Shown here: positions 897-62,246 of the stretch, one piece after another
Numbering within the stretch: position 1 is the stretch's first letter
Layout: each line of letters starts with the position of its first letter
NCBI GenBank assembly: GCA_026395175.1
Contig: JAPLZF010000017.1
Location: 12,017 to 76,016 of the forward strand
Length of the DNA stretch: 64,000 bases
Direction: 5' to 3'
DNA from: Candidatus Staskawiczbacteria bacterium
GTDB taxonomy: Bacteria > Patescibacteriota > Minisyncoccia > Minisyncoccales > Staskawiczbacteraceae
The notes under the pieces: model-generated
Told to the model about the DNA's origin: nothing
What the model saw: only the letters and a program-made list of their open reading frames with translations
The model's database searches: none
Position numbers and translations under genes: made by a program

Positions 897-1755
897 TTAT
901 TGTTGTGACACTGCAATTCCATAAGGATGGTTTCCCACATTATATGTTCCTATTATGATTCCCGAGGAATTAAGTTTTGTAACAGTATTCCCATTGAAAT
1001 TACCAACCCAGACATTTCCAGAAGCGTCAGCTGTAATTCTGTAAAGAGTATTCGCAATATGGTATGTTCCTACTGCGTTTCCCGACGAGTTAAGTTTTAT
1101 AACATTGTTATCACTATTAGTAACCCAAACATTTCCGGAAGAATCAGTTGCAACGCCAGAAGGATTATTTCCCACATCATATGTTCCTATTGTGTTTCCC
1201 GAGGAGCTAAGTTTTGTAACGGTGCCATCTAATCGATTAGCAACCCAGACATTTCCAGAAGCATCAACTGCAACTCCATAAGTTTCGTTCCCTGCCGAAT
1301 ATGTTCCTACCACACTTCCTGCGGAGTTAAGTTTTGTAACAGTATTACCATTTAAACTGCCAACCCAAACATTCCCCGAAGAATCAGTTGCAACTTGCCA
1401 AGTTAAACTTCCCACATTATATGTTCCTATTGTTGCTCCTGTTGAGCCATTAAGTTTTATAACTTTATTTCCGCCCGAACTGGCAACCCAGACATTTCCT
1501 GAAGAATCAGTTGCAATACCAGAAGGATAATATCCTCCTAAACTATATGTTCCCACCACGCTTCCTGAGGAGTTAAGTTTTGTAACAGTGCCATCCATCC
1601 AATTGCCAACCCAGACATTTCCTGAAGAATCAACCGCAACTCCATCAGGATTGTTTCCCACAGGATATGTTCCTAATAAATTTCCGTTTGAACCATCAAG
1701 TTTTGTAACAGTATTATCGCTAAAATTGGCAACCCAGACAAAAATTGAACTTGGA
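897..1755 (-). repeat. C-terminal array of about 7 tandem ~126-nt (42-aa) NHL-like blade repeats
   Basis: I counted seven VTKL/VIKL-centred units by eye between IFVWVANFSDNTVTKL and the C-terminus. Confidence 0.7.
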
Positions 1756-27958: not shown

Positions 27959-28031
27959 CGCTTGGCAATCAAATTTTTTTTCGCTAAGTCCTCGCTTCGC
28001 TGCGGAGCTCAAAAAAATTTATTGCCTCGCT
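27959..28031 (+). repeat. 73-nt palindromic intergenic element, copy 1 (12 nt before the rplL ATG)
   Basis: cgctTggcaatcaaattttttttcgctaagtcctcgcttcgctgcggagctcaaaaaaatttattgcctcgct. Differs from copies 2 and 3 at one base. Confidence 0.9.
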
Positions 28032-28043
28032 ACATTAAATATT

Positions 28044-38781: not shown

Positions 38782-41319
38782 ATGGCATTTTCTCAATTCA
38801 CAAATAAATCTCCAGAAGAAGTTTTCAAGATTTTTAAAACTTCCGGCGGCGGCCTCTCAAAAAAAGAGGCGAATTTTGCTTTGGCAAAATTCGGTCTGAA
38901 CGAGGTGAAGACCAAAAATATCAATGCCCTGGAAATTTTTGTCAGGCAATTGAAATCTCCTTTTGCCTATTTGCTTTTAATTGCGGCGATAGTGTCTGTT
39001 TTTATCGGCCAGCCGGTTGACAGCATTGCAGTTTTGGCTTTTATTTTTATCAATGTTTCCATCGGATTTTTTCAGGAATATAGGGCGGAGAGAGCGGTGA
39101 TTCTTTTGCAAAGATTCATTCCCCAAAAAGTAAAAGTTTTGCGCGATTCAAAAGAAGAAGTCATCGATAAAAAATTTTTGGTGCCGGGTGATGTTGTTTT
39201 ATTGGAGGCCGGCGACAATGTTCCTGCCGACTTGCGGGCGATAAATCTGGAAAACTTTTTAGCCGACGAATCGGCTTTGACCGGCGAATCTGTTCCGGCT
39301 TCTAAAATTATAGAAGCTTTGCCAAGCGAAGAAAAAGAAATTTTCAAGGCAAAGAATATTATTTTTTCAGGCACTTCTGTTATTTCCGGCAAAGCCCGGG
39401 CTATTGTTGTGGCTGCCGGCAAAGACACGGTTTTTGGCAACATTGTCAAAATAATTTCCGGCATAAAAAGAGAATCAGCCTACGAAAAAAGCATCATATA
39501 TTTTTGCAAGCTGATTTTAAGGATTGTCGCCACCACAATAATCTTAATTTTTATTGCCAATATTCTGCTGAAAGGAATAAATGATATTTTGGAGCTTCTT
39601 TTGTTTTCTGTTGCCTTAATAGTGAGCATTCTGCCGGAAGCCCTGCCGGCCGTTGTGACTTTTGCGCTTTCTGAAGGAAGCTTGAAAATGGCGCGGCAAA
39701 AAGTTGTTGTGAAAAGATTGTCGGCAATTGAAGATTTGGGCAACATAGAAGTTTTATGCGCCGACAAAACAGGAACGCTGACTCAGAATAAATTATCTTT
39801 GGAAGAAATTGTTTCCTCTGACAAGAAAAAATGTTTTTTGTACGGAATTTTGACTTCGGGAGCCAAAGACAAAGACGACAAAATTTTGAATCCGTTTGAC
39901 TCGGCTTTATTTGCTCGTGTTCCGGATGATGTTTTGAGGCAGTCAAAAAAGTTTGAAATAATTTCAGAATTGCCGTTTGATTCTTACAGAATGAGGTCTG
40001 CATTTTTGGCGCAATCATCTAAAAACGAGAGATTTTTAATTGTTAAGGGAGCTCCGGAATCAATTTTGAAAAACTGCTCGAAGTTTGGCGGGAATTTTGA
40101 CAAAAAAGAGATTAAGGAAGATGTGGAAAAAGAAGGACTGGAAGGAAAAAGAGTTTTGGCGCTGGCGTTTAAAAAAGTTGATAAAGAAAAAAATAATTTA
40201 AAAGTTGAAGATGAAAAAGGGCTTACTTTTTTGGGATATTTTGTTTTTGAAGACCCTCTGAAAAATACAGCCAAAGAGGCGATAGAATTGTCAAAAAAAT
40301 TAGGAGTCCAAATTAAAATTATTACAGGAGATTCAAAAGAAGTTGCAGGATATGTCGCCAGAAAAACCGGCTTGGCTTCAAGCGAGCAGGATATTATTTC
40401 AGGCCAGGAATTGGAAAAATTGACAAAAGAAGAATTTGACGACGCCTGTCAGGAAAAATCTGTTTTTGCCAGAATTTCTCCGGACGTAAAGCACAATATA
40501 ATAAAATCTCTGCAGAAAAAATACGAAGTCGGATTTTTGGGAGAAGGAATAAATGACGCGCCGGCGCTAAAAACAGCCGATGTGGGAATTGCCGTTGTCG
40601 AGGCGTCTGATGTTGCCAGGGAAGCCGCAGATGTTGTGCTTTTGCAGAAAGATTTGCGGGTTATTGTAAATGGGATTAAAGACGGCAGAATGATTTTTGC
40701 CAATATCAACAAATATATAAAGTGCGCTTTGGCGAGCAATTTTGGTAATTTTTATTCAATTGCCGTAATTTCCTTGTTTATAAATTACTTGCCAATGCTT
40801 CCGGTGCAAATTTTATTGGGGAATATTTTGTCTGATTTTCCTTTAATTTCTGTTGCCACAGATTCGGTTGACATCGACGAATTAAGAAAGCCAAAATTGT
40901 ACCAGCTTCATAATATTTTGCCGTTAATAATTTCTTTAGCCTTGGTAAGCACAGTTTTTGATTTTATATTTTTTGCCATTTTTTTTAGGCAGGCGCCGGC
41001 GACCATACAAACTTTGTGGTTTATTGAAAGCATTTTAACCGAGCTTTTGCTGATATTCATCATTAGGACAAGGGGAAAATTTTGGCAGGCAAAAAGGCCG
41101 AGCGCTTGGATGATATGGCTAGCTGCAATTGACGCAATTTTTATTGTTGCTTTGCCATTTTTAAAAATTGGGCAGAGCTGGTTTCACTTTGTTGCTTTGC
41201 CAATTTTGCCGCTACTGATTGTGTTTTTGGAAATTGTTGCATATTTTTGGGTCAGCGAATTTGTAAAATTAATTTATTTCCATTATTGGAAAATTCCAAA
41301 TAGTGGTAATATCAAATAA
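38782..41319 (+). CDS. Cation-transporting P-type ATPase (Ca2+/Mg2+ type)
   Basis: CADKTGTLTQN phosphorylation site, LTGESVP actuator motif, GEGINDAPALKTADVGIA hinge, and N-terminal Cation_ATPase_N-like segment. Confidence 0.9.
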   Translation: MAFSQFTNKSPEEVFKIFKTSGGGLSKKEANFALAKFGLNEVKTKNINALEIFVRQLKSPFAYLLLIAAIVSVFIGQPVDSIAVLAFIFINVSIGFFQEYRAERAVILLQRFIPQKVKVLRDSKEEVIDKKFLVPGDVVLLEAGDNVPADLRAINLENFLADESALTGESVPASKIIEALPSEEKEIFKAKNIIFSGTSVISGKARAIVVAAGKDTVFGNIVKIISGIKRESAYEKSIIYFCKLILRIVATTIILIFIANILLKGINDILELLLFSVALIVSILPEALPAVVTFALSEGSLKMARQKVVVKRLSAIEDLGNIEVLCADKTGTLTQNKLSLEEIVSSDKKKCFLYGILTSGAKDKDDKILNPFDSALFARVPDDVLRQSKKFEIISELPFDSYRMRSAFLAQSSKNERFLIVKGAPESILKNCSKFGGNFDKKEIKEDVEKEGLEGKRVLALAFKKVDKEKNNLKVEDEKGLTFLGYFVFEDPLKNTAKEAIELSKKLGVQIKIITGDSKEVAGYVARKTGLASSEQDIISGQELEKLTKEEFDDACQEKSVFARISPDVKHNIIKSLQKKYEVGFLGEGINDAPALKTADVGIAVVEASDVAREAADVVLLQKDLRVIVNGIKDGRMIFANINKYIKCALASNFGNFYSIAVISLFINYLPMLPVQILLGNILSDFPLISVATDSVDIDELRKPKLYQLHNILPLIISLALVSTVFDFIFFAIFFRQAPATIQTLWFIESILTELLLIFIIRTRGKFWQAKRPSAWMIWLAAIDAIFIVALPFLKIGQSWFHFVALPILPLLIVFLEIVAYFWVSEFVKLIYFHYWKIPNSGNIK

Positions 41320-41320
41320 T

Positions 41321-41782
41321 ATGAAAATCAAATCTTTTTTAGTAATATCTTTTTTAGCAATAATAATTTTATGTTCTGCCAGTTTTGCCACGGCTCAAAC
41401 TGCAGATAATTCAACGCTAATTGCCCAGCTTCAGGCAGAAATTGAACAGTTGTCAGCGCAATTGGCTCAGCTTCAGGCAAAGCAAGAATCGTCGCCCGCG
41501 TCATCAGTTTGGTGCTACACTTTTTCTGATAATTTGAAAGCCGGAAATGCAGGTCCTGCGGTTTTGGCATTGCAGACAGCTCTTTTGAAAGAGGGTTTGT
41601 TTTCTGTTTCTGCCACAGGAACTTTCGGTCCAAAAACCGCTTTGGCTGTTGCAAGCTTCCAAGAAAAATATGCCAGCGACATTTTAACTTCAAGCGGATT
41701 AACAAAAGGCACAGGCTATGTTGGCCCGGCAACAAGAACAAAATTAAATGCGCTGTATGGTTGCGCAACAATTCCTAAATAA
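41321..41782 (+). CDS. Secreted peptidoglycan-binding-domain protein (153 aa)
   Basis: Signal peptide MKIKSFLVISFLAIIILCSASFATAQ and PG_binding_1-like GNAGPAVLALQTALLKEGL...FGPKTALAVASFQEKY...YVGPATRTKLNALYGC. Confidence 0.7.
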   Translation: MKIKSFLVISFLAIIILCSASFATAQTADNSTLIAQLQAEIEQLSAQLAQLQAKQESSPASSVWCYTFSDNLKAGNAGPAVLALQTALLKEGLFSVSATGTFGPKTALAVASFQEKYASDILTSSGLTKGTGYVGPATRTKLNALYGCATIPK

Positions 41783-41794
41783 TTTTTCAAACCC

Positions 41795-41824
41795 TTGCAT
41801 AACTCTGCTGGGGGGGGGTATTAT
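41795..41824 (+). promoter_or_regulatory. Putative promoter TTGCAT-18-TATTAT whose spacer contains a G9 homopolymer
   Basis: ttgcat at 41795-41800, spacer aactctgctgggggggg with G9 at 41810-41818, tattat at 41819-41824. Confidence 0.5.
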
Positions 41825-41854
41825 TAGATAATATAATTAAAATAATTAAAAACC

Positions 41855-43144
41855 ATGAAAATTAAGTCTATTATATTCACAGCTGTTTTAGCAACAGCAG
41901 TTTTGTGTTCGCCATTTATTGCTTCAGCCGCCAGTTTAACAAGCTCGCAAATATCTGCAATAATGAACCTGCTTTACGCATTTGGAGCAGATTCAGCAAC
42001 AATTGCCAATGTGCAAACCTCGTTAACCGGCGGAACGCCAAATATTTTGTCTAATTCTTGGTGCCACACTTTTAATGCAAATTTAGGAGTTGGCAATGCC
42101 GGCAACGAAATAGCCGCGTTACATGCAGCTTTAACTAAAGAAGGTTTTACTAGCACCTCATGGAGAGCCGACAATTTTACAGAAACTACGGCTTCAGCAG
42201 TAGTCCAGTTTCAACAGAAATATGGAATTAGCCGAACAGGTTATGTTGGTCCATTAACCCGAGCAAAATTAAATGCTTTATATGGATGTAGAATAATAAC
42301 CCCGCAAAATATTACAATTAATTCTGTTTCTGGGCCAAACTCGCTTAATGTTGGGCAAACAGGAACCTGGACAGTAAACGCAACAGCTCCAAGCGGAACA
42401 AATTTAACATACAGAGCAGCGTGGGGCGAATATGATGGCTATATGGGAATTTCTTCCCAAGCAATCCCAACTGGCTTAATTAATCAAACCGGCACATTCA
42501 CTCATTCTTATGCCAATGCAGGCACCTACACCGCAACATTTATTGTTTACAGCGGATATAATTGCGTAAATTATTCCACCGGAGCGCTAAATTCTGCTTG
42601 CAGCTCTACTCAAACCAGCCTAACTGTTGTTGTGGGAGCAGTTAATGGCAATTTATCAATAACTTATCCTTCCGACCCGGCTAATTGGCATGATTATGTT
42701 GGCGGAAATTATTCCAAAGTTTTTAGTGTTGTAAACTCATCGGCTAGCCGGCATTATTCGTGGTCAATTACCAGCGGTTCTTTGCCATCGGGTCTAAATT
42801 TAACTAATCAGTTGGTTGCCTGTGCTACATATGCTTGCGTTGTTGGCCAATATTGTCCGCCTTGCCCAGATGGTTCTAGTCAAATAATTATTACCGGCAC
42901 TCCAACTCAAGCCGGCAATTTTCCATTTACTTTGACTGTTCGCGACGACCTGGGCAACACCGGCTTAGTAAACCTCAACATTTACATTGAAACAATGTCA
43001 GGATGCGCTAACCTATATTGGGCAGACAATACAAATAGAAGCTGTCAGACAATGAGACAATTTTGCGGAGCATATATGTATTATGGTTTGTATACATTTA
43101 ATACCCAGCAAGATTGTATAAATGCAGTCACGTCTGGGCATTAA
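41855..43144 (+). CDS. Secreted protein: PG-binding domain plus PKD-like and Ig-like domains (429 aa)
   Basis: Signal peptide. PG_binding_1-like segment paralogous to the previous gene (YVGPLTRAKLNALYGC). PKD-like GQTGTWTVNA...HSYANAGTYTATFIV. Ig-like SLPSGLNL...ITGTPTQAGNFPFTLTVRD. Confidence 0.75.
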   Translation: MKIKSIIFTAVLATAVLCSPFIASAASLTSSQISAIMNLLYAFGADSATIANVQTSLTGGTPNILSNSWCHTFNANLGVGNAGNEIAALHAALTKEGFTSTSWRADNFTETTASAVVQFQQKYGISRTGYVGPLTRAKLNALYGCRIITPQNITINSVSGPNSLNVGQTGTWTVNATAPSGTNLTYRAAWGEYDGYMGISSQAIPTGLINQTGTFTHSYANAGTYTATFIVYSGYNCVNYSTGALNSACSSTQTSLTVVVGAVNGNLSITYPSDPANWHDYVGGNYSKVFSVVNSSASRHYSWSITSGSLPSGLNLTNQLVACATYACVVGQYCPPCPDGSSQIIITGTPTQAGNFPFTLTVRDDLGNTGLVNLNIYIETMSGCANLYWADNTNRSCQTMRQFCGAYMYYGLYTFNTQQDCINAVTSGH

Positions 43145-43158
43145 AAAATAGAATAAAA

Positions 43159-43185
43159 AGGCGGGAAGAAATTCTCGCCTTTTTT
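43159..43185 (+). terminator. Intrinsic terminator
   Basis: Stem aggcgggaa / ttctcgcct with loop gaaa, followed by a T-run. Confidence 0.7.
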
Positions 43186-43240
43186 AGTGGGATATAATAA
43201 CAAATGGTTGAATATAGTAACAAGAATATATAAGGAACAT

Positions 43241-43280
43241 ACCGGTAGCGTTTTTGCCTCCAGGCAAAAACGCTACCGGT
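43241..43280 (+). repeat. Perfect 18-bp-stem palindrome, copy 1 (upstream of PaaX-like gene 1)
   Basis: accggtagcgtttttgcc tcca ggcaaaaacgctaccggt. Confidence 0.9.
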
Positions 43281-43328
43281 AACATTAAATTCTTTTGTTG
43301 TGATATAATAGAAATATATAATAAAGAT

Positions 43329-43883
43329 ATGAGTTCTGTAACGGAAAAAATATTGTTGCATTTATATGATTGCGTTGATTATGGTTTTAGTTATCGGGCG
43401 AAGAAGGGGTTTTTTATTTCGGAATATTTTGACCACTGGAAAAATGAAATTAGTCCCAGTAAAATTAAAGACGGCATAAGGGATTTAAACAAGCAGAAAT
43501 TTATCAGGAAGAAAGAAAAATATGACGGTTCGGTGTTTGTCTCGCTTACAGAGAAGGGCAGGCTGAGAGCTCTTAACCTTAAATTCAGGTGCCTTGGGAA
43601 CAAAAAAGAAAAATGGGATGGAAAATGGCGGATGGTGGCTTTTGATATTCCCGATAAATATAAAAAAGGAAGAAGTGCATTAAGATACAGACTGAAAATG
43701 GCGGGCTTCTACGAACTTCAGGAAAGCTTATTTTTATATCCTTATGATTGCCAAGAAGAGATGAAAAATCTTGTAAATTTATTTAATTTGCGAAAGTATG
43801 TATGTTTTGCAGTAATCACCAGTATAGACGACGAAAGAATTATAAGAGTAGAGCAAAGAATAAAAAAGCTTAAAACGTCGTAA
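43329..43883 (+). CDS. PaaX-like regulator (winged helix plus Cas2-fold PaaX_C-like domain), paralog 1
   Basis: WDGKWRMVAFDIPDKYKKGRSALRYRLKMAGFYELQESLFLYPYD matches the W.G.W..V.FD.P...R..LR..L...GF..LQ.S pattern. The ATG at 43329 follows an extended -10, tgaTATAAT (43301-43309). Confidence 0.6.
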   Translation: MSSVTEKILLHLYDCVDYGFSYRAKKGFFISEYFDHWKNEISPSKIKDGIRDLNKQKFIRKKEKYDGSVFVSLTEKGRLRALNLKFRCLGNKKEKWDGKWRMVAFDIPDKYKKGRSALRYRLKMAGFYELQESLFLYPYDCQEEMKNLVNLFNLRKYVCFAVITSIDDERIIRVEQRIKKLKTS

Positions 43884-43889
43884 TTTGTG

Positions 43890-43933
43890 ATACTGGTAGC
43901 GTTTTTGCCTCCAGCCAAAAACGCTACCAGTAT
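43890..43933 (+). repeat. 18-bp-stem palindrome, copy 2 (downstream of PaaX-like gene 1)
   Basis: atactggtagcgtttttg cctccagc caaaaacgctaccagtat. Shares the core ggtagcgtttttgcctccag.caaaaacgctacc with copy 1. Confidence 0.9.
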
Positions 43934-43950
43934 ACCAGTAATATATTGGG

Positions 43951-44050
43951 TTTAGTTTAGTTTAGTTTAGTTTAGTTTAGTTTAGTTTAGTTTAGTTTAG
44001 TTTAGTTTAGTTTAGTTTAGTTTAGTTTAGTTTAGTTTAGTTTAGTTTAG
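43951..44050 (+). repeat. Pentanucleotide microsatellite (TTTAG)x20
   Basis: I counted 100 nt of perfect tttag units. Degenerate T/G-rich sequence follows to about 44100. Intergenic, upstream of rmuC. Confidence 0.95.
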
Positions 44051-44112
44051 TATTGTTCTGTTGTTTCTTGGTAAATTTTGCGTTGGGTTTAGTTTTGAGG
44101 TAGAATAATATT

Positions 44113-45132
44113 ATGGACATTACAACAATACTTTTAATTGTAATTGCGGTGGGGGTGGTGACGGCGATTTTTTTGTTGGTTGTGCGGAGAAGTCCTTCGA
44201 CGGGCTCAGGACAAAAGCAAGACGATAACTCGTTCTTGCTTTTGCATCAGCAGATAAATCAAATTGCGCAGGCAGTTGATTCAAAGTTGTCCGAGTCAAA
44301 TAAAAATGTTCAGGAGCAATTTAAGCATTCAGCCGACATTATTAGAAATGTTACCGAAAAATTAACCAAGCTGGACGAAACAAACAGGCAAGTGGTTGGG
44401 TTTGCCGACCAGTTGAAAGGCTTGCAGGACATTTTGAAAAATCCAAAACAGCGGGGGATTTTGGGCGAATATTATTTGGAAACTGTTTTAAAAAATGTTT
44501 TACCGCCGGGTTCTTACCAAATGCAATATGGGTTTTCAAACGGAGAAATTGTTGACGCGGTTGTTTTTGTGGACAAAAGAATAATTCCAATTGACTCAAA
44601 ATTTTCTTTAGATAACTACAACCGAATGCTTCAGACAAATGACCCTTTAGAGAAAAAAAGACTTGAAACAGCTTTTGTTAATGATTTAAAATTAAGAATT
44701 GATGAAACCTCAAAATATGTACGGCCAGAAGAAAAAACAATGGATTTTGCTTTTATGTTTATTCCGTCTGAAGCTGTTTATTATGACTTGCTGATAAACA
44801 AAGTGGGAGTTGTTTCTGAAGACACAAATAATTTAATTTATTATGCCGGCAAGAAAAAAGTTATTGTTGTTTCGCCAACTTCATTTTTGGCATATTTGCA
44901 GACGGTTTTGCAGGGGCTGAGAAATCAAAAAATTTCAGACCAGGCGCAGACAATAATTAAAGAAGTTGAAAGGCTGGGCAAACATTTGTTTACGTATTCA
45001 GAACATTTTAACCGGCTGGGCACGCATTTGGAAGCAACAACAAGCAGCTTTAACAAGGCAAAAGTTGAATTTGGCAAAATTGACAAAGACGTTGTAAAAC
45101 TTACGGGCAGCAACCCAACGCTTGACGAATAA
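44113..45132 (+). CDS. rmuC: DNA recombination protein RmuC
   Basis: N-terminal TM, coiled coil, GILGEYYLETVLKNVLP...VDAVVFVDKRIIPIDSKFSLDNY and FMFIPSEAVY. The -10 tagaat (44101-44106) ends 6 nt before the ATG, so the mRNA may be leaderless. Confidence 0.8.
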   Translation: MDITTILLIVIAVGVVTAIFLLVVRRSPSTGSGQKQDDNSFLLLHQQINQIAQAVDSKLSESNKNVQEQFKHSADIIRNVTEKLTKLDETNRQVVGFADQLKGLQDILKNPKQRGILGEYYLETVLKNVLPPGSYQMQYGFSNGEIVDAVVFVDKRIIPIDSKFSLDNYNRMLQTNDPLEKKRLETAFVNDLKLRIDETSKYVRPEEKTMDFAFMFIPSEAVYYDLLINKVGVVSEDTNNLIYYAGKKKVIVVSPTSFLAYLQTVLQGLRNQKISDQAQTIIKEVERLGKHLFTYSEHFNRLGTHLEATTSSFNKAKVEFGKIDKDVVKLTGSNPTLDE

Positions 45133-45160: not shown

Positions 45161-45233
45161 CGCTCGGCAATCAAATTTTTTTTCGCTAAGTCCTCGCTTC
45201 GCTGCGGAGCTCAAAAAAATTTATTGCCTCGCT
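45161..45233 (+). repeat. 73-nt palindromic intergenic element, copy 2 (9 nt before the rplU ATG)
   Basis: Identical to copy 3 and 1 nt different from copy 1. Confidence 0.9.
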
Positions 45234-45242
45234 TATACTTAC

Positions 45243-45718: not shown

Positions 45719-47734
45719 ATGAGCAAAACATTTCATAAGAGTTTTGTATTTTTGTTTGCCGCAATTTTTGCAATGTGCGGTTTTTTTATTGCCAGCGATG
45801 TACTCGCAGCAAGAACCCTTAATTCTGTAACGATTAATGGGGTAAGCAGTGTTTTTGTTAAGGGAGGACAAGCAGTTACCATCGCCGTAACCGTTACATT
45901 GTCTGGTACATCCTCAAACTCATGGTATTCCACGAGGTATCAGATTGGTACTTTGGGATGGGTTTGTGTTGATACTCCCGATCATCTTTCTGGTCACAAT
46001 GGAACCTATACAGAGACGTTTTCAATAACAGCACCAGTAGCACAAGGAAACTATAATCTTGCTATTACCGCACACGGTCGAGATAATACCTGTAATACTT
46101 CTTACAGCACAAACCAGATCACATTAACGAATGGAATTATTGTTGATAATACCGCGCCGACGCTGAATTTACCTGCCGATATAATCCAGCAGGCAACGGG
46201 GATAACTGGTAAAATAATAGATTACACAGCAACCGCCAATGATTCCTATCCAGCACATCCTGCAGTAAATTGCACTCCGCCGTCTGGCTCAGTCTTTCCA
46301 ATTGGACTAACAACTGTGAATTGTTCTGCGACCGATAATGCAGGCAATATTTCAAATGGCAGTTTTAAGGTTGAAATAACAAAATTAGACCAGACAATTT
46401 CTGTGACAAAATCTGCGCCGGTGAGCGCGATTTATGGAGATAATTTTGATGTTTCGGCGAGTGCGACTTCAGGATTAGATGTTGTCATCACAACTTCGGG
46501 TTCTTGTTTTGGTGATGGGACAAATTCTGCGACAATCACAATGACAAGTGGCGCAGGAACTTGCGCAGTGCATTATAATCAAGCGGGTGATCCGTCTTAT
46601 AATCCTGCTCCCGAAGTTATAGAAAATACAACAGCTCAACCAAAAATTATAAATGTTACCGCTGATGCTAAAGGCAAAAATTACGGCGACGCCGGCTCGG
46701 CTTTGACTTATGTAAATGATCCGTTAGTCGGCAGTGATTCTTTTACCGGCGACCTATCCCGCGACCCTGGCGAAGATGTTGGTGTCTACGCCATCACGCA
46801 AGGAACATTAGCTTTAAGCGGTAATTATACTTTAAATTATGTTCCAGCAAACTTAACGATTTCGCAGTTTATTCCTGTCATCAATGTTATAATTGAAGCT
46901 AAAAACAAAACCTACGGCGATGCCGACCCTGCTTTGACTTATACTTTTTCTCCTGCGTTGTATGACGGAGATACTTTCAGCGGTTCGTTGAGCCGGGCAA
47001 GCGGAGAAGATGTCGGTTTTTATGTCATTGCTCAAGGCACTTTAACGGCTGGTCCTAATTATAATTTAAGTTTTGCAGGAGCCGACCTAACAATTAATCA
47101 GAAAGATATTACCACAACCGCCGATGTCAAAAACAAAACCTACGGCGATGCCGACCCGGCATTTACTTACCAAATTACCAGCGGTTCGTTGGTCGGTAGT
47201 GATGCTTTTTCCGGTGACCTAACTCGCAATGCAGGTGAAGATGTCGGCATTTACGCTATCACGCAAGGAACGTTGTCTGCCGGTCCTAATTATAATTTAA
47301 GTTTTGCAGGAGCCGACCTAATAATTAATCAGAAAGATATTACTGTTACTGCCAATCCTAAAAATAAAATTTACAATGATGCCGACCCGGCTTTGACTTA
47401 CACCAGTGACCCGTTAGCTTTTGGCGATTCTTTTACTGGCGCGTTAATCCGCGATGACGGCGAAAGCGTTGGCAGTTATGCTATCAACCAAGGAACATTA
47501 AGCGCTGGGACAAATTATAATATAACATTTGTTCCTTCTATTTTTACTATTATGCCTTTGACAGGCGGAAGCGGAGGCAACGGATACAACAAACCATCGG
47601 AAATCAAAACTAATGATTTTGATATGTTGATTGCAGATTGGGGCAAAAATGGATCAAGCGCAGAGGATTTAAATCATGACGGCGTGGTTGATGAATATGA
47701 TTTGGCATTATTAATGTCCAATTGGAGCTTATAA
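45719..47734 (+). CDS. Secreted adhesin-like protein: HYR-like domain, five MBG-type repeats, C-terminal dockerin-like module
   Basis: Signal peptide. HYR-like DNTAPTLNLPADI...CSATDNAGN. Five ~75-aa repeats (KNKTYGDADPALTY...GEDVG.YAI.QGTL....NY.L.....LTI), with near-identical ~60-nt stretches starting about 47051 and 47282. C-terminal DLNHDGVVDEYDLALLMSNW. Confidence 0.75.
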   Translation: MSKTFHKSFVFLFAAIFAMCGFFIASDVLAARTLNSVTINGVSSVFVKGGQAVTIAVTVTLSGTSSNSWYSTRYQIGTLGWVCVDTPDHLSGHNGTYTETFSITAPVAQGNYNLAITAHGRDNTCNTSYSTNQITLTNGIIVDNTAPTLNLPADIIQQATGITGKIIDYTATANDSYPAHPAVNCTPPSGSVFPIGLTTVNCSATDNAGNISNGSFKVEITKLDQTISVTKSAPVSAIYGDNFDVSASATSGLDVVITTSGSCFGDGTNSATITMTSGAGTCAVHYNQAGDPSYNPAPEVIENTTAQPKIINVTADAKGKNYGDAGSALTYVNDPLVGSDSFTGDLSRDPGEDVGVYAITQGTLALSGNYTLNYVPANLTISQFIPVINVIIEAKNKTYGDADPALTYTFSPALYDGDTFSGSLSRASGEDVGFYVIAQGTLTAGPNYNLSFAGADLTINQKDITTTADVKNKTYGDADPAFTYQITSGSLVGSDAFSGDLTRNAGEDVGIYAITQGTLSAGPNYNLSFAGADLIINQKDITVTANPKNKIYNDADPALTYTSDPLAFGDSFTGALIRDDGESVGSYAINQGTLSAGTNYNITFVPSIFTIMPLTGGSGGNGYNKPSEIKTNDFDMLIADWGKNGSSAEDLNHDGVVDEYDLALLMSNWSL

Positions 47735-56082: not shown

Positions 56083-56120
56083 TATACCACAAATTATACA
56101 GGTGCATAAATTATGGTATA
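56083..56120 (+). promoter_or_regulatory. 38-nt palindromic operator-like site A (TATACC-N26-GGTATA) upstream of PaaX-like gene 2
   Basis: tataccacaaattatacaggtgcataaattatggtata. The right half overlaps a -10-like tatagt. Confidence 0.55.
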
Positions 56121-56144
56121 GTTAAAAAAGAAACAAAATTATTG

Positions 56145-56666
56145 ATGAAGCTACCAATAACGGATCAATTTTTATGGGATATCTATAATATAGCAAGCAA
56201 AGCAGGTAATGCTTTTGATTTTAAATCTATAAATATGGCAAATTATCTTCCTGGAGTACAAAATCCTGTTTTCAAAAAATATAGAAGCGATAGAGATAAA
56301 GCAAAATTTGCGAAATTAATTTATTATTTAAAAACTAATAACTATATACAGGTTAAAGATTTACAGGGTAAGAAAGCTATTATTTTAACGAAAGAAGGAT
56401 TCAGCAAGGCGTTAAAGGCAAGCTTTGCAATGGAAGGGAAGAAAAAAAGAAAAGATGGTAAGTGGACAATGTTGATTTTCGATATGCCATCGAAAAATCG
56501 ACAGAGGCGAACCCTGATGCGAAGTATTTTACAAAATTTAGGCTATAAAATGTTCCAGCAAAGCGTTTGGATAACCCCTTATGACGTTTCAGATAAAACA
56601 GAATCATATTTACAAATTTATTCGTTAGACAAGTACGTCAAAATATTTTTAATAGAGGAAATATGA
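56145..56666 (+). CDS. PaaX-like regulator, paralog 2
   Basis: DGKWTMLIFDMPSKNRQRRTLMRSILQNLGYKMFQQSVWITPYD parallels the motif in 43329-43883. Confidence 0.6.
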   Translation: MKLPITDQFLWDIYNIASKAGNAFDFKSINMANYLPGVQNPVFKKYRSDRDKAKFAKLIYYLKTNNYIQVKDLQGKKAIILTKEGFSKALKASFAMEGKKKRKDGKWTMLIFDMPSKNRQRRTLMRSILQNLGYKMFQQSVWITPYDVSDKTESYLQIYSLDKYVKIFLIEEI

Positions 56667-56668
56667 AA

Positions 56669-56706
56669 TATACCATAAATATAGTAGGTGCTGAAATTAG
56701 GGTATA
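56669..56706 (+). promoter_or_regulatory. 38-nt palindromic operator-like site B, a direct repeat of site A, upstream of the 194-aa gene
   Basis: tataccataaatatagtaggtgctgaaattagggtata. The right half overlaps tataat (56703-56708). Confidence 0.55.
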
Positions 56707-56729
56707 ATTAAAAAATAATAAATAAAATT

Positions 56730-57314
56730 ATGAGTGAAATAAATTTTAAAATTGGTTTTTGGCATCCATTCGGTCCGCACGGTTATAAGGAAAACGGTGA
56801 AGTGGAAAGTCGCGAAGAAATAATAGATAGAAAGGAAAAGGAAATAAAGAAGAATAAAGGGTGGACGCTATGGGCTTTCTCAGAAAAAAGGGATGAAACA
56901 ATAAATCAATGGCGTAAAGAGATCGGAAAAAACAAGCGAGTTTTTGTTTTATGCTCGGACAGCAAAACAACAAAAAATCCCACTGGCGATTGTTTGTATG
57001 CGAAGTATTTAATAGAAAATGGAAAACCACAAGAAATTTCTAAAAAGATAAAAGTTAGTTTTTTCGGCAAGAAAGAATCGGCTTGTGCATTTAAGGTAAA
57101 AGCTGTTTATAAGCCAGAAATGATAAAAATACCAAACAATATTAAATGGTTTAAAACAACAAGTGGGGAGTGGAAAGACGGATCCAGCCCAAGTTTTGGC
57201 GGTTTGCCTACTATCAGTGAATCTTTGATAAAGTCGGGAGGAAAATCGAAGCTGAGAAAAGTTTTTTTAGTTTTAGAATTAGAATATCCGTATGTTGTTA
57301 AAATTAAAAAATAG
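56730..57314 (+). CDS. Hypothetical 194-aa cytoplasmic protein
   Basis: Intact ORF with no TM helix and no motif I recognise. Preceded by operator-like site B. Confidence 0.55.
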   Translation: MSEINFKIGFWHPFGPHGYKENGEVESREEIIDRKEKEIKKNKGWTLWAFSEKRDETINQWRKEIGKNKRVFVLCSDSKTTKNPTGDCLYAKYLIENGKPQEISKKIKVSFFGKKESACAFKVKAVYKPEMIKIPNNIKWFKTTSGEWKDGSSPSFGGLPTISESLIKSGGKSKLRKVFLVLELEYPYVVKIKK

Positions 57315-59681: not shown

Positions 59682-59754
59682 CGCTCGGCAATCAAATTTT
59701 TTTTCGCTAAGTCCTCGCTTCGCTGCGGAGCTCAAAAAAATTTATTGCCTCGCT
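59682..59754 (+). repeat. 73-nt palindromic intergenic element, copy 3 (11 nt before the ATG at 59766)
   Basis: Identical to copy 2. Confidence 0.9.
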
Positions 59755-59765
59755 TTATTTCAGAC

Positions 59766-62246
59766 ATGTCTATAATTATTCCGGGTTTAATTTTAGTTTT
59801 TCTTTTGATTGTTTTGGCTTTTATTATGGTTTTAAATGCCGAAACAAACGAGAAAAATTCGGTTTTTGGAGGACTGGAGATGATTTTGTTTTTGGTTATG
59901 ATGCCAAAAAATCCTCCTAAAAAAGAAGGAGAAGCGCAAAAAGAGCAAAAAATTATGATTGCCCAGATGGAGCAGGTTTTTGCCAATTTTTTGTATTTGA
60001 AAAAACCGAGAATTTTTCAAGACTCGCCGGCAATCGCTTTTGAAATTGCCTCGCAAATTGGAAGCGCTGACATATCTTTTTATGTTGCGGTTCCAAAATA
60101 CTTGGAATCTGTTTTTGAAAAATATGTGCAGGGCGTTTATCCTAATGCCGTGGTTGACAAGGTTCCGCAGGATTACACAATTTTCGAGCCACAGGGAGCT
60201 TCAGCGGCCGCTTATTTAAAACTTTCAGAAAGCCCGCTTTTTCCAATAAGCACTTACCAAACCTTGGAAATGGATCCTCTGTCTTTGATAACAAATACTC
60301 TAAGCAAAATTTCAGCCAACGAAGGCGGAGCAGTTCAGGTTTTGATTAGGCCTTTGTCAAAATCAAATTTCAGGAAAAAAGGAGAAAAAGCCTTGAGAAA
60401 AATCAGGGAAGGAAAAGCTTTGAGAGTTGCTGTGCGCTGGGCAACTTATGGTTTTTTTATGCAGATAGTCGATGAATTGATATTAAATCCGCCGAAAGAT
60501 CCAAAAAAAGATCCTTCAAATCCAACCGCCAATCCAATGATGAGAAGAGAGCAGGGATTCGACCAAAAAGGTTACGACGCCATACAAAGCAAAATTCAAA
60601 AACAGCCTTTTGAAGTTGACATAAGAGTTGTTGCATCCGCCCAATCAGAAGGAAGAGCTGAAGAAATTTTAGACCATTTGGCGTCGGCTTTCAGCCAATT
60701 TTCTTTGTCGGCAATAAACAGCTTGGAACCAAAAAAAGTTTCTAAAAGGGAATTGCGAAAATTAATTTACGATTATAGCTTTAGGAATTTCAACCAAAGC
60801 CATTCAAACATTTTAAATTTGGAAGAACTGGCGAGCATCTATCATTTTCCGTCGCATTATGTTGAAACTCCGTACATCAAAGCTGCAAAATCAATAACAG
60901 CGGCTCCGCCGACTGATTTGCCCGAGCAAGGCGAAATTTGCATTGGAAAAGTTAATTTTAGGAACGAAGAGAAAAAAGTTTATTTTGCCGACAAGCAGGA
61001 CAGACGAAGGCATTTATATATTATTGGGCAAACTGGCACCGGCAAATCTGCTTTTATGGAAGGAATGATTGCTCAAGATATTTTAAATGGCGAAGGAGTT
61101 GCCGTGGTTGACCCGCATGGAGAGCTGGTTGAGCATGTTTTGGCAATGATTCCAAAAGAAAGAATTGATGATGTTGTAATTTTTGAGCCTTCGGACATAG
61201 AAAGGCCGTGCGGTTTGAATATGTTAGAATACGACAGTCCCGAGCAAAAAGATTTTGCGGTGCAGGAAATGATTGCAATTTTTATGAAACTTTTTCCGCC
61301 CGAAATTATTGGGCCAATGTTTGAGCATTATATGAGAAACGCAATGCTGGCGTTGATGGCAGACAAAAATAATCCCGGAACTTTGGTTGAAATTCCAAAA
61401 ATGTTTACCGATCCGACGTTTTTGCAGACACGATTGGCAAAAGTTTCAGACCCCATTGTGCGAAGTTTTTGGACAAAAGAATGGGCGCAGACAACCGGAA
61501 GCACAAGGTCTGATATGTTGGGATATGTTGTTTCAAAACTTGGCAGATTTATTGAAAATGAAATGATGAGAAATATAATTGGACAGTCGCATTCCGGGTT
61601 TGACTTGGCTGAAATTATGGATAAGAAAAAAATATTTTTGGCAAATTTGTCCAAAGGTTTAACCGGAGAAGTAAACAGCTCTTTGTTGGGTCTAATTCTA
61701 ATTTCAAAAATACAAATGGCGGCAATGCGACGCGCAAGAGTTGCAGAAGAGTTGAGAACAGATTTTTATTTGTATGTTGACGAATTCCAAAATTTTACAA
61801 CCGATTCAATTTCCACAATTTTGTCTGAGGCCAGAAAATACAAATTGAATTTGATAATGGCGCACCAATATATGCCTCAGTTGAAGCAAGAAATTAGAGA
61901 CGCTGTTTTGGGAAACGTGGGCACGATTGGCGCGTTTCGCATTGGCGCTGAAGATGCCGAAAATCTGCAAAAGCAATTCGAGCCCGGGTTTTCAAGGTTT
62001 GACTTGGTGAATTTGGACAACTTCAACGTGATAATCAAAATGATGATAAATAATAAAACTTCCACTCCGTTTAAAATGCAGACTTTGCCTCCGCCGAAAG
62101 GCAAACCGGAAATTGTTGAGGCAATCAAGAAAATTTCAAAACTAAAATATTCCCGCGCCAAAGCAATTGTAGAGGAAGAAATCACCCAGCGTTCTTTTGC
62201 CGAATTGCCACCCATGCAACCGCCAGTTCCTCCGCCTAAGCAATAG
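59766..62246 (+). CDS. Type IV secretion coupling-protein-like ATPase (VirD4/TraG/TraD family), membrane-anchored
   Basis: N-terminal TM IIIPGLILVFLLIVLAFIMVL, Walker A IIGQTGTGKSAF, DPHGELVEHVL, Walker B-like FYLYVDEFQNF, and LIMAHQYMPQL. The start was trimmed to the ATG at 59766, outside the repeat. Confidence 0.75.
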   Translation: MSIIIPGLILVFLLIVLAFIMVLNAETNEKNSVFGGLEMILFLVMMPKNPPKKEGEAQKEQKIMIAQMEQVFANFLYLKKPRIFQDSPAIAFEIASQIGSADISFYVAVPKYLESVFEKYVQGVYPNAVVDKVPQDYTIFEPQGASAAAYLKLSESPLFPISTYQTLEMDPLSLITNTLSKISANEGGAVQVLIRPLSKSNFRKKGEKALRKIREGKALRVAVRWATYGFFMQIVDELILNPPKDPKKDPSNPTANPMMRREQGFDQKGYDAIQSKIQKQPFEVDIRVVASAQSEGRAEEILDHLASAFSQFSLSAINSLEPKKVSKRELRKLIYDYSFRNFNQSHSNILNLEELASIYHFPSHYVETPYIKAAKSITAAPPTDLPEQGEICIGKVNFRNEEKKVYFADKQDRRRHLYIIGQTGTGKSAFMEGMIAQDILNGEGVAVVDPHGELVEHVLAMIPKERIDDVVIFEPSDIERPCGLNMLEYDSPEQKDFAVQEMIAIFMKLFPPEIIGPMFEHYMRNAMLALMADKNNPGTLVEIPKMFTDPTFLQTRLAKVSDPIVRSFWTKEWAQTTGSTRSDMLGYVVSKLGRFIENEMMRNIIGQSHSGFDLAEIMDKKKIFLANLSKGLTGEVNSSLLGLILISKIQMAAMRRARVAEELRTDFYLYVDEFQNFTTDSISTILSEARKYKLNLIMAHQYMPQLKQEIRDAVLGNVGTIGAFRIGAEDAENLQKQFEPGFSRFDLVNLDNFNVIIKMMINNKTSTPFKMQTLPPPKGKPEIVEAIKKISKLKYSRAKAIVEEEITQRSFAELPPMQPPVPPPKQ

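Follow-up and report, generated by a model that had tools for sequence, protein, structure and literature searches.

A truncated PaaX-like gene with a Cas2-like domain in Candidatus Staskawiczbacteria, flanked by two copies of a long palindrome that are probably its own operators

The window (the whole 64-kb stretch of Candidatus Staskawiczbacteria DNA that was analysed) contains a gene for a 184-aa protein located between a PG-binding/PKD gene and rmuC and flanked on both sides by a long palindrome. The features of this locus are given below by their positions in the window.

43155..43184, plus strand: canonical intrinsic terminator of the upstream PG-binding/PKD gene (41855-43144), with 13-nt arms followed by a T run; conserved in the related locus L002
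43240..43281, no strand: palindrome 1, the proposed upstream operator (O_U); its arm reads, toward the dyad, GGTAGCG (outer block), TTTTT (A/T tract) and GCCTC (inner block)
43301..43322, plus strand: promoter region read from the sequence, with an extended -10 element TGATATAAT (43301-43309) and a second TATAAT (43317-43322)
43329..43883, plus strand: gene for the 184-aa protein, with an N-terminal winged helix and a Cas2-like (PaaX_M) domain (Pfam, AF2, Foldseek, NCBIfam)
43890..43933, no strand: palindrome 2, the proposed auxiliary operator (O_D), anchored at the stop codon, with homologous sites in relatives
43950..44052, no strand: (GTTTA) microsatellite of about 20 units (period 5, 20.4 copies), between O_D and the rmuC promoter
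44113..45132, plus strand: rmuC, the downstream neighbour (Pfam RmuC, 1.3e-55), with its own TAGAAT -10 box about 5 nt ahead of the ATG

The initial annotation described the gene as PaaX-like with a Cas2 fold, and this was borne out by profile and structure searches. Pfam matched PaaX_M (PF20803) at residues 94-164 (E=4.7e-20, 71.9 bits vs the cut-off of 24), and the best PDB match in Foldseek was E. coli PaaX (8a39, 188 columns aligned). The profile check of the PaaX domains succeeded for PaaX_M only: the PaaX_C effector (phenylacetyl-CoA) domain had no Pfam match in the protein, which ends at residue 184. The score against TIGR02277 was 37.8 bits, below the equivalog cut-off of 264.55. The winged helix is seen in the AF2 model as helices and a beta-hairpin across residues 3-73, and the Pfam match to HTH_27 is weak (E=0.12). 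Many MarR-type regulators were also matched by the model in Foldseek, the N-terminal domain resembling the MarR, ZitR and AdcR folds. The Cas2-like domain is built, according to the AF2 secondary structure, of E100-105, H109-124, E128-131, E134-137, H142-151 and E158-163, and Cas2 5zyf matches this C-terminal domain (Foldseek probability 1.00; TM-score normalised to the target 0.59-0.63).

A Candidatus Staskawiczbacteria MAG encodes an identical protein (P0001). The family forms a CPR-centred radiation of proteins of about 180 aa, in which 2327 clusters at 50% identity reach E<=1e-10, while a sequence search of the PDB with the family profile gave marginal matches only. Regulators are very scarce in CPR bacteria, where next to nothing is known of gene control; the family identified here is a large one, joins a winged helix to a Cas2-like domain and counts thousands of 50%-identity clusters. 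We found no literature linking PaaX with CPR or with Cas2-like proteins. The protein had no relatives in 2.9 million viral contigs, and a phage origin was rejected on these grounds.

Two motifs, FDIP and Q-x-S-x-F, are invariant in the family alignment; they resemble YDI and Q-x-S-x-F in Cas2. Also invariant is D106, which corresponds in position to the catalytic Asp of Cas2, where strand beta-1 ends. With the NCBIfam Cas2 model (TIGR01573, cut-off 24.5), the 184-aa protein scores 21.5 bits, under the cut-off, and a second gene of the window (paralog 2, described below) passes with 27.7 bits; PADLOC Cas2 models also match. These Cas2 scores and the invariant motifs could speak for a Cas2-type nuclease or defence protein that cleaves or nicks the palindromes or some similar nucleic acid, with the copies on either side serving as self-targets or immunity sites, and a PD-(D/E)XK nuclease gene does lie downstream in two contexts (rmuC here, and a Cas4-like PDDEXK_1 gene in loci L119, L005, L013 and L115). 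We regard this role as highly improbable. PaaX has the same fold yet acts as a repressor, and the winged helix and the location at the promoter point to regulation. No CRISPR-like array is present in the direct- and inverted-repeat lists of the window, and most contexts of the gene consist of ordinary housekeeping genes, such as tpiA, ftsK, a prepilin peptidase gene and aminoacyl-tRNA synthetase genes.

Two palindromes flank the gene where the initial annotation had placed them, palindrome 1 being slightly longer than it stated. In the inverted-repeat listing of the window, palindrome 1 consists of fully (100%) complementary 20-nt arms with a 2-nt centre, and palindrome 2, which begins at the 7th nucleotide past the stop codon, can be described as 18 perfect pairs or as 21-nt arms at 95%. 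Their shared 20-mer, GGTAGCGTTTTTGCCTCCAG, is confined to these two sites within 64 kb, where shuffles expect 0. The longest other perfect stem in the window is 12, and the maximum in 20 Markov resamplings was 13. With only two copies in 64 kb there is no pattern of a dispersed repeat, and a REP- or MITE-like element was rejected on the basis of the window search and a scan of one genome per species. Rfam at gathering thresholds gave only five tRNAs in the window and no known RNA family at the palindromes.

The element TGATATAAT starts 19 nt past the end of palindrome 1, so that the -35 position abuts the right arm of the palindrome. The second TATAAT lies 6 nt ahead of the ATG; the mRNA of the gene is therefore probably leaderless or nearly so. 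No paa catabolic genes adjoin the gene, which has the PG-binding/PKD gene and rmuC on its two sides in the window and lies among housekeeping genes in 80 related loci. The (GTTTA) microsatellite is missing from L002 and L129, which makes it a strain-specific expansion lying outside the module formed by the gene and its two palindromes. Tandem repeats near the downstream palindrome are enriched only about 2-fold over the rest of the loci; as the spacers are AT-rich, this was unconvincing, and the idea that the palindrome induces such repeats was rejected.

The same layout recurs in related loci. Under a strict test, 38 of 65 non-redundant metagenome loci with both flanks carried both palindromes, 19 carried one and 8 none, and most of the palindromes that failed were present as less perfect copies under a relaxed test. 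Taken separately, homologous sites were found upstream of the gene in 49/72 loci by the strict test (more by the relaxed one) and at the stop codon in 51/75 loci (strict), against a background of only 6 family-type palindromes in the remaining 230 kb of the loci. A fixed-geometry detector of block palindromes performed no better than a plain palindrome scan, since the A/T tract varies from 5 to 7 nt. The motif scan of one genome per species returned 36 loci, with a single locus in each of four gene-carrying genomes; in four CPR genomes the match directly adjoins a homolog of the 184-aa gene, and the remaining matches are mostly single and lie in unrelated phyla. The palindromes are specific to the gene and are neither generic terminators nor dispersed repeats.

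The positions of the two sites differ in kind. In about 45 loci, TGnTATAAT is found 1-25 nt past the upstream site, the centre of which lies ~30-36 nt upstream of the -10 box. The downstream site is anchored at the stop codon, at offsets between about -21 and +52 nt that mostly fall between 0 and +25; the distance from the site to the next -10 box varies from 26 to 80 nt with no fixed register, and it is kept even where the neighbouring gene is convergent. For these reasons, general control of the downstream gene, which the initial annotation had raised for rmuC, is not supported. The distance between the upstream and downstream sites is 568-759 bp across loci and shows no 10-11-bp periodicity, so that looping is not specifically supported by helical phasing. 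No conserved partner gene was found, the 241 neighbour proteins falling into 138 clusters.

Within a locus the two copies match each other, and between loci they differ. Upstream and downstream copies share an identity of 0.84 when taken from one locus and of 0.49 when taken from different loci; at the outer positions 11-17 it is 0.88 vs 0.33, and at positions 18-24, outside the palindrome, it drops to 0.39 vs 0.31. Close relatives alter both arms of both copies together (GCC in the window, GTC in L001 and TTTTCGTC in L002). Every member of the family has a predicted binding site on either side of its gene.

Across about 60 loci the protein and the palindrome co-vary, which is in line with the cognate pair proposed by the initial annotation. 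The six strongest residue-base couplings join residues 109, 112, 116 and 119 with DNA positions 1-5. D116 pairs with C at position 5 (a CAC or CGC triplet) in 16/17 cases, K116 with GCC in 13/13 and E109 with G at position 2 in 24/26. When the inner bases are predicted leave-one-out from residues 109, 112 and 116, the score is 0.69, against a mean of 0.36 and a maximum of 0.51 for 400 random triples of variable residues, phylogeny being corrected for only in part in all these covariation figures. Rules set beforehand were matched in full in 4 of 7 new loci and in one arm only in 2, and failed in 1; in two sites among these loci the arms carry different inner blocks. In 30 nearest-pair contrasts, the key pairs reached only p=1e-4 to 1e-2 before correction and did not stand alone among 2975 tests. 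The three residues 109, 112 and 116, which lie on helix alpha-1 of the Cas2-like domain, predict the five bases beside the dyad better than any of the random triples, and this gives a testable residue-to-base hypothesis. For the outer block, no residue stands out in residue-base prediction.

The symmetry of the sites is 0.48 at the central position and >=0.91 at positions 2-17. Asymmetries in the A/T tract retain A/T in 21/23 cases, and conserved hybrid sites of the type GGTAGCG-TTTTT-GTCG..CGAC-AAATTT-GCTACC recur in several genomes. There is no excess of G-U pairs in the palindrome arms. The unconstrained centre, the tolerated A/T-tract swaps and the absence of a G-U excess fit a protein on duplex DNA and not a hairpin. 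It was also considered that the palindromes act as RNA or DNA stem-loops (terminators, mRNA stabilisers or RNase III sites) that insulate the gene at either end, without any sequence-specific protein. As RNA they fold with -34.2 and -31.6 kcal/mol (z-scores -8.1 and -5.9), the downstream copy occupies a terminator-like location, some relatives have A-run and T-run flanks, and a terminator scan gives palindrome 1 a terminator-like score, with a weak T-rich tail, on the minus strand only. On the coding strand, however, there is no U tract in the window, and the scan gives no plus-strand terminator at either palindrome. Palindrome 1 is unnecessary for termination because of the canonical terminator at 43155..43184 ahead of it, and canonical terminators also lie past the downstream palindrome in L036 and L039. 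The upstream copy precedes the promoter and would thus be outside the gene's own transcript. The reading leaves unexplained the match of copies within loci and their difference between loci, the residue-base covariation, the non-complementary A/T-tract swaps and the palindromy across the would-be loop. Structural hairpins are therefore very improbable, and a generic terminator was rejected, given the missing U tract, the adjoining canonical terminators and the locus-specific palindrome sequences.

We suggest, as the probable interpretation, that the two palindromes are cognate duplex-DNA operators of the encoded protein, a truncated PaaX-like autoregulator. A dimer of the 184-aa protein would occupy the 34-44-bp site. 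Its central core would be formed by two Cas2-like domains, the residues 109-124 helix of each reading the five bp that flank the dyad; the A/T tract (positions 6-10) would serve as a spacer, and the winged helices may read the variable outer heptamer (positions 11-17). The gene's extended -10 promoter has its -35 region under the upstream site, so that occupancy of this site should repress the gene, and the autoregulation proposed earlier fits this arrangement. The downstream site is a putative auxiliary operator, for which the likeliest roles would be looping with the upstream site or a protein roadblock insulating the gene from its neighbours. In L099, an orphan site of the window type lies on the promoter of an unrelated 97-aa gene, which fits a transcription factor that may act in trans. 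Several points count against the operator model: the only clear targets of the regulator flank its own gene, with no obvious physiological purpose; the PaaX effector domain is missing; and the inner block is perfectly palindromic throughout, beyond what most operators need.

The closest known system is PaaX, the repressor of phenylacetate catabolism in E. coli W and Pseudomonas (PDB 8a39, 3l09), in which a Cas2-like middle domain likewise comes after an N-terminal winged helix. PaaX is a repressor of its own promoter, where it hinders RNA polymerase, and its E. coli operator, TGATTC-N27-GAATCA, spans 39 bp (PMC9493321), so that the earlier objection that 18-bp stems are too long for an operator loses its force. 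Both systems have a long inverted repeat at the regulator's own promoter, here the predicted 34-44-bp palindrome on the -35 region. In contrast to PaaX, the 184-aa protein has no PaaX_C domain and no paa genes nearby, its candidate operator is palindromic over the full length and not in the outer hexamers only, and a second copy follows the stop codon. No structure of a PaaX-family DNA complex was reported in a 2022 review (PMC9493321). If the Cas2-like helix does read bases, the PaaX family would gain a first DNA-recognition model, and the Cas2 fold would be seen in a new function.

The ferredoxin-like fold and similar motifs are found in Cas2, the scaffold dimer of the CRISPR Cas1-Cas2 integrase. 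The Cas2 dimer lies on DNA and contacts the protospacer duplex via R14, R16, R77 and R78 (PMC8390960). R14 and R16 lie just past strand beta-1, in the region equivalent to the covarying residues 109-116. Unlike in Cas2, the domain is fused here to a winged helix, in a window whose repeat lists show no CRISPR-like array; Cas2 contacts DNA without sequence specificity, whereas the covariation suggests that the helix of the 184-aa protein reads bases. MarR-type autoregulators resemble the protein in the N-terminal fold and in the palindromic operators over their own promoters, but dimerisation would occur here via the Cas2-like domain and not the MarR helical bundle, and the candidate operator is about twice as long.

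In LacI (O1/O2), GalR and DeoR systems, the promoter operator is accompanied by a second cognate operator, located within the regulated gene or past it at a distance of a few hundred bp. The primary site at the promoter and a second one at a similar distance are found here too; the differences are that the second site is fixed at the regulator's own stop codon, that no tetramerisation domain is evident and that helical phasing is absent. A stop-codon-anchored second operator would be an unusual design, and it may be a general insulation or looping device in compact genomes.

The gene and both palindromes evolve as one unit. Close relatives lack the module upstream of rmuC, so that it was gained there as a unit, and in this respect the cassette envisaged by the initial annotation stood, although its delimitation by attC-like or terminator-like hairpins did not. 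Integron attC cassettes are similar in having a short promoter-proximal gene with a site of imperfect to perfect palindromy at the 3' end and in occurring as units in varied contexts. In contrast, both flanking sites of the present module have the same sequence and differ between loci together with the protein; the stems are perfect, with no R/L boxes or extrahelical bases seen; there is no integrase among the neighbours and there are no arrays, and each module has its own promoter.

A mobile or selfish cassette of another kind may be considered, in which the palindromes are recombination sites delimiting a palindrome-promoter-gene-palindrome unit that moves between intergenic sites. The protein would mark or process the ends or recruit a recombinase, and a circular form with one palindrome, inserted at a palindrome-like target, would yield two flanking copies. 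At least 7 distinct housekeeping contexts harbour the module, and the protein tree departs from synteny; yet many divergent genomes share each of these contexts, a sign of stable inheritance. In L127 and L128 (RmuC 88-90% identical), there is no module upstream of rmuC, but the two PG-binding genes are missing from this empty site too, and the difference does not amount to a cassette-precise insertion. In L129 and L001, the edge of palindrome 1 is exactly the left junction: it is joined to a duplicate of the first ~50 nucleotides of rmuC, at a point where the palindrome arm matches the rmuC coding sequence at 14/17 positions; this could also be explained by homology-facilitated illegitimate recombination after transfer of a window-shaped block. 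The two copies of L011 are identical down to asymmetric details, while in general the copies are alike only as far as the palindrome edges and their centres vary in orientation, which fits selection on a binding site better than copy-paste. Orphan single palindromes in L115 and L072 and the invariant D106 at the Cas2 catalytic position would suit a mobile unit. No degraded regulator pseudogene was detected beside the L115 orphan. On the other side, no recombinase or transposase is linked to the module among the neighbour genes of the loci, and the protein has no viral relatives in the contigs mentioned above. Overall, such a cassette is unlikely, and the operator model is preferred.

A further reading, which we consider decidedly doubtful, is that the Cas2-fold domain has become a sequence-reading module, its first helix specifying the five bp beside the dyad by a simple residue-to-base code, and that the gene with its two palindromes duplicates and relocates whole in reduced CPR genomes, integrating at palindrome-like pseudo-sites, for which the rmuC junction gives a hint. 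The candidate code would be D116 for CAC, K116 with V119 for GCC, N116 with R112 for GTC, and E109 for G. If true, a Cas2 relative would recognise palindromic repeats around its own gene, which bears on the origin of the association of Cas2 with CRISPR repeats.

A second gene of the same family lies further along the window, with the following features.

56084..56122, no strand: upstream imperfect palindrome of paralog 2, ATACCACAAATTATAC-AGGT-GCATAAATTATGGTAT, overlapping the gene's own -10 box TATAGT
56142..56666, plus strand: paralog 2, a 174-aa protein with a winged helix and a Cas2-like domain (PaaX_M, E=4.7e-19)
56670..56708, no strand: downstream copy of the paralog 2 repeat, overlapping the -10 box TATAAT of the next gene (56730-57314)

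Paralog 2 is 36% identical to the 184-aa protein across the Cas2-like part. The initial annotation held that it is bracketed in the same way, which proved correct as regards repeat copies with inverted repeats on both sides; these are imperfect, though, with 13/16 and 11/16 positions pairing by reading, and belong to a direct repeat of ~50 nt with a mean column identity of 84%. The right arms of the inverted repeats overlap the -10 boxes at 56117-56122 (TATAGT) and 56703-56708 (TATAAT).

The two palindromes that the initial annotation placed on either side of the 184-aa PaaX-like regulator gene are present in the sequence. The gene and its surroundings comprise the following features:

43155-43184, canonical terminator of the upstream gene, preceding palindrome 1
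43240-43281, palindrome 1, with fully complementary 20-nt arms and a 2-nt centre
43301-43309, extended -10 box TGATATAAT, after palindrome 1
43329-43883, plus strand, regulator ORF of 184 aa, bracketed by palindromes 1 and 2
43890-43933, palindrome 2, with 18 perfect pairs

Palindrome 2 starts at the seventh nucleotide past the regulator stop codon. The 20-mer common to both palindromes has no other occurrence in the 64 kb (0 expected from shuffles), and the longest other perfect stem in the window has 12 pairs (maximum of 13 in 20 Markov resamplings). The predicted RNA folds of palindromes 1 and 2 are very stable (-34.2 and -31.6 kcal/mol, respectively). A pentanucleotide array, (GTTTA) × about 20, separates palindrome 2 from the rmuC promoter (43950-44052). 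Since the related metagenome loci L002 and L129 have an ordinary T/G-rich spacer there, it represents a microsatellite expansion specific to the strain. Short tandem repeats after the downstream palindrome also occur in L029, L044, L007 and L024, the overall enrichment being only about 2-fold.

In the Pfam search, residues 94-164 of the regulator matched PaaX_M (4.7e-20), which is the Cas2-like domain in the middle of PaaX, and its N-terminus gave weak matches to winged-helix models. No PaaX_C match was obtained. In NCBIfam, the regulator scored 37.8 bits against the PaaX equivalog (cut-off 264.55) and 21.5 bits against the Cas2 model (cut-off 24.5). The top Foldseek PDB match was E. coli PaaX (8a39, E = 2.3e-5, both domains covered); below it ranked MarR-type regulators, which match the N-terminal domain, and Cas2 5zyf, which matches the C-terminal one. 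Given these domain, score and fold results, the first two domains of the regulator are PaaX-like, and the protein is neither a PaaX orthologue nor Cas2 in the functional sense. The second PaaX-like gene of the window (paralog 2, 56142-56666) exceeds the NCBIfam Cas2 cut-off (27.7 vs 24.5 bits), so that automated annotation may call it Cas2; no CRISPR-like array was present in the repeat lists of the window. An identical regulator protein was found in a Candidatus Staskawiczbacteria MAG. About 400 close homologs of ~180 aa exist, and a profile searched against 1.84 billion cluster representatives yielded 2327 clusters at E ≤ 1e-10, nearly all of 170-210 aa.

Eighty metagenome loci with homologs 46-82% identical were fetched, and their flanks were scanned for palindromes. 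Most carried a near-perfect 30-46-bp palindrome 10-170 nt before the start codon and a matching copy at the stop codon. Under a strict criterion, both palindromes were found in 38 of the 65 non-redundant loci with both flanks available, one in 19 and none in 8, and a relaxed scan showed that most apparent gaps hold recognisable, less perfect copies. Only six palindromes of the same type occurred in the other 230 kb of these loci. The palindrome bracket is thus confirmed and is a property of the family. All sites share a single geometry, given here as half-site positions counted outward from the dyad:

positions 1-5, inner block, e.g., GCCTC, GTCGA, CACTC or TGCGG
positions 6-10, A/T tract, TTTTT or AAATT
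positions 11-17, variable outer block, e.g., GGTAGCG, TACGGC or GTACGG

The identity of the upstream and downstream copies was 0.84 within a locus and 0.49 between loci (0.88 vs 0.33 for the outer block), and the similarity stops at the palindrome edge (0.39 within vs 0.31 between loci at positions 18-24). Among the closest relatives, the palindromes read ...TTTTTGCC... in the window, ...TTTTTGTC... in L001 and ...TTTTCGTC... in L002; the differences affect both arms and, in L002, both copies. In L121 (9900-9939 and 10575-10616) and L124 (690-723), the two arms differ in the inner block (TGCTG vs GCCTC); such palindromes may be specificity-switch intermediates or sites common to two paralogs. 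Very long perfect palindromes of another type, with stems of 18-25 nt, lie near some loci (L013, about 2297-2347 and about 3890-3938; downstream regions of L016, L062 and L060), for example AAAATACAAAAATACGGCTCACACA.TGTGTGAGCCGTATTTTTGTATTTT, and others contain GGTCCGAC or GTCCGAC.

Despite the very stable RNA fold, several features of the sites argue for recognition of double-stranded DNA rather than of a hairpin. Symmetry is kept in 48% of sites at the central position and in at least 91% at positions 2-17; asymmetries in the A/T tract retain A/T in 21 of 23 cases; and 10 of 89 sites have two or more non-complementary A/T-tract positions with the blocks intact. Hybrid TTTTT/AAATTT sites are kept across genomes, and G-T asymmetries in downstream sites are not commoner than A-C ones (9 vs 8). 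In about half of the sites the palindromy continues through the would-be hairpin loop, and the upstream copy lies outside the transcript of the regulator gene itself. Canonical terminators follow the downstream palindrome in L036 and L039. The attC-like and terminator-like readings, put forward earlier as the alternative to operators, are not supported.

Protein-DNA covariation was assessed in 61 loci through the mutual information that alignment columns share with half-site positions. All six top couplings join residues 109, 112, 116 and 119 to DNA positions 1, 2, 4 and 5; the spacing of these residues (i, i+3, i+7, i+10) places them on one face of helix 109-124. The pairing of residues with bases is nearly deterministic: D116 occurs with C at position 5 (16/17; CAC or CGC triplets) and K116 with GCC (13/13, V119 usually alongside); N116 is paired with GTC in combination with R112 and with TGC in combination with K112; and position 2 is G in 24 of 26 cases with E109 and T with N or D109. 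The window and L001/L002 differ at residues 110, 111, 112 and 116 and in the inner triplet (GCC vs GTC). On an NJ tree built without the coupled columns, D116 was gained about six times, five of them with C at position 5, and this C was never found without D116. In leave-one-out tests, residues 109, 112 and 116 predicted the inner bases with a score of 0.69; no triple among 400 drawn at random from equally variable residues exceeded 0.51, which serves as a partial control for shared ancestry. The nearest-pair contrast test was weaker (p from 1e-4 to 1e-2, uncorrected), the key pairs not being unique among 2975 tests.

The residue-base rules were fixed in writing before seven additional loci were fetched. 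Four of the seven homologs matched fully (P0012 with TGCTG, P0082 with CACTC, P0007 with TGCTC and P0064 with GTCGG), P0081 and P0044 matched in one arm, and P0017, with GGCGT, failed. P0012 and P0082 are encoded on one contig, and their helices and inner blocks differ as predicted. By mutual information, outer positions 14-17 are coupled to residues 49-56, 61 and 74 of the winged helix; residue-base prediction gave no clean recognition code for the outer block. The family is large and unstudied, its layout is very regular, and these rules are directly testable.

The E. coli PaaX operator is TGATTC-N27-GAATCA (PMC9493321), so a palindromic operator of 34-44 bp is of normal length for the PaaX family, which answers the earlier concern that 18-bp stems are unusually long for an operator. 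PaaX represses its own promoter through steric hindrance, and no structure of a PaaX-DNA complex is known (PMC9493321). In Cas1-Cas2, the Cas2 dimer sits on the protospacer duplex with contacts from R14, R16, R77 and R78 (PMC8390960); R14/R16, just past strand β1, lie in the region equivalent to residues 109-116 of the regulator. By these precedents and the covariation, the Cas2-like core would contact the palindrome centre and the winged helices would grip the outer blocks.

In about 45 loci, an extended -10 box lies 1-25 nt past the right end of the upstream palindrome, so the palindrome centre falls about 30-36 nt before the box, with the -35 region covered by the right arm. Several genomes in which the context is MetAP-tpiA have AAATTT in place of AAAAA in the right arm, which creates a -35-like TTGCTA hexamer 16 nt from the -10 box. 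The upstream operator would mediate autoregulation. In many loci only 6-7 nt lie between the -10 box and the ATG; over the about 45 related loci and the window the distance is 5-7 nt, for regulator genes and also for rmuC (window 43317-43331 and 44103-44115). Such proximity suggests that mRNAs of these CPR bacteria have little or no leader.

Relative to the stop codon, the downstream palindrome is placed at about -21 to +52 nt (in most loci 0 to +25), and it is 26-80 nt from the -10 box of the next gene without a fixed register; it is also kept where the next gene is convergent. For these reasons it belongs to the regulator gene and not to the neighbour, and control of the downstream gene, suggested as a possibility in the initial annotation, is not supported as a general rule. 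Paralog 2 differs in that each repeat copy overlaps a -10 box, that of its own gene or of the following gene. Looping or a roadblock are the leading candidate roles for the second operator.

We consider it likely that the regulator protein binds these palindromes. The best-supported reading as a whole, which we hold with moderate confidence, is that they are cognate operators of a truncated PaaX-like dimer with a Cas2-like core, the upstream site being autoregulatory and the second site anchored at the stop codon.

The pattern GTAGCGTTTT-N6-18-AAAACGCTAC was scanned for in one genome per species (185,579 species) and gave 36 loci, mostly single matches in unrelated phyla. Four matches in CPR genomes directly adjoin a regulator homolog (L091, L105, L117 and L118), with one locus per genome, and two more are orphan sites (L099 and L115). 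A generic element, which further copies across genomes would have indicated, was rejected on this scarcity and on the position of four CPR matches beside homolog genes. Three family-type palindromes have no adjoining regulator gene. That of L099 (3819-3850) coincides with the promoter of a 97-aa gene of unrelated type, just 3' of ychF; that of L115 (989-1020) is flanked by rpsI and a gene for a Cas4-like nuclease, at a position that in other genomes holds the regulator with its palindromes; and that of L072 (3715-3754) follows an S1-domain gene. They could be members of a trans-acting regulon or remnants left by lost modules.

The neighbours in the related loci include no conserved partner gene. 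The module (regulator gene plus both palindromes) is found repeatedly in several housekeeping contexts. It follows map, at the end of the ribosomal protein cluster, and precedes tpiA; it separates pilin genes from the prepilin peptidase gene, trpS from the RNase J gene, and rpoC from ftsK; and it precedes an aminoacyl-tRNA synthetase gene, a Cas4-like PD-(D/E)XK nuclease gene, or rmuC (the last in the window and in L002). The type of the protein does not follow its position. Among the recurrent downstream neighbours, two are nucleases of the PD-(D/E)XK type, namely Cas4-like PDDEXK_1 (229 aa, C-terminal Cys cluster; L119 10656-11345, L005 3158-3847, L115 1646-2320) and RmuC (window 44113-45132). 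The adjacency of a Cas2-like and a Cas4-like gene is suggestive, and the pattern is not common to the other contexts.

Comparison with relatives showed that the module is missing before rmuC in two of them. In L127 and L128 (RmuC 88-90% identical), rmuC lies 4 nt past a P-type cation ATPase gene (3496-3501), with neither the module nor the PG-binding genes; the window has about 2.8 kb extra there, comprising two PG-binding/PKD surface-protein genes (41303-43144) and the module. In L129 and L001 (regulator 80% and 82% identical), the upstream PKD gene is separated by 6 nt from a second copy of the rmuC 5' end (nucleotides 1 to about 50), which is joined to the left arm of palindrome 1 (duplication footprint at L129 1609-1660 and 2381-2440; L001 2771-2822). 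In L129 the regulator gene comes next, then palindrome 2 and, beyond a spacer of 78 nt, complete rmuC; the L001 contig ends 34 nt past the regulator stop codon. The joint falls within a stretch where the palindrome arm matches rmuC codons 14-19 (TGGTGGTGGCGATTTTG) at 14 of 17 positions, and looks like the footprint of module arrival at the rmuC locus. Because of the absence in relatives and this junction, the module was gained before rmuC as a unit, with the joint at the palindrome edge, which is the main support for the alternative that it is a mobile cassette moving as a unit. Homology-facilitated illegitimate recombination of an incoming window-shaped block and pseudo-site recombination both fit as routes of arrival.

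Other repeats were also found in the window. A ~73-nt element, CGCTyGGCAATCAAATTTTTTTTCGCTAAGTCCTCGCTTCGCTGCGGAGCTCAAAAAAATTTATTGCCTCGCT, is present in three copies (27961-28033, 45163-45235 and 59684-59756), identical except at one C/T position. The copies end about 10-13 nt before an ATG, in one case that of rplU and in another that of an 833-aa ORF (59745-62246). The element folds into a hairpin (-22 kcal/mol, z = -2.9), had no Rfam match at gathering thresholds and is missing from every one of the 129 loci fetched; a MITE-like or 5'-leader element is possible. Long periodic coding repeats occur near the left end of the window (900-3000, minus strand; 7-12 copies of ~120-nt units) and, as ~231-nt units at 46649-47551, within the gene for a 671-aa surface protein (45719-47734); these regions probably encode repeat-domain proteins.
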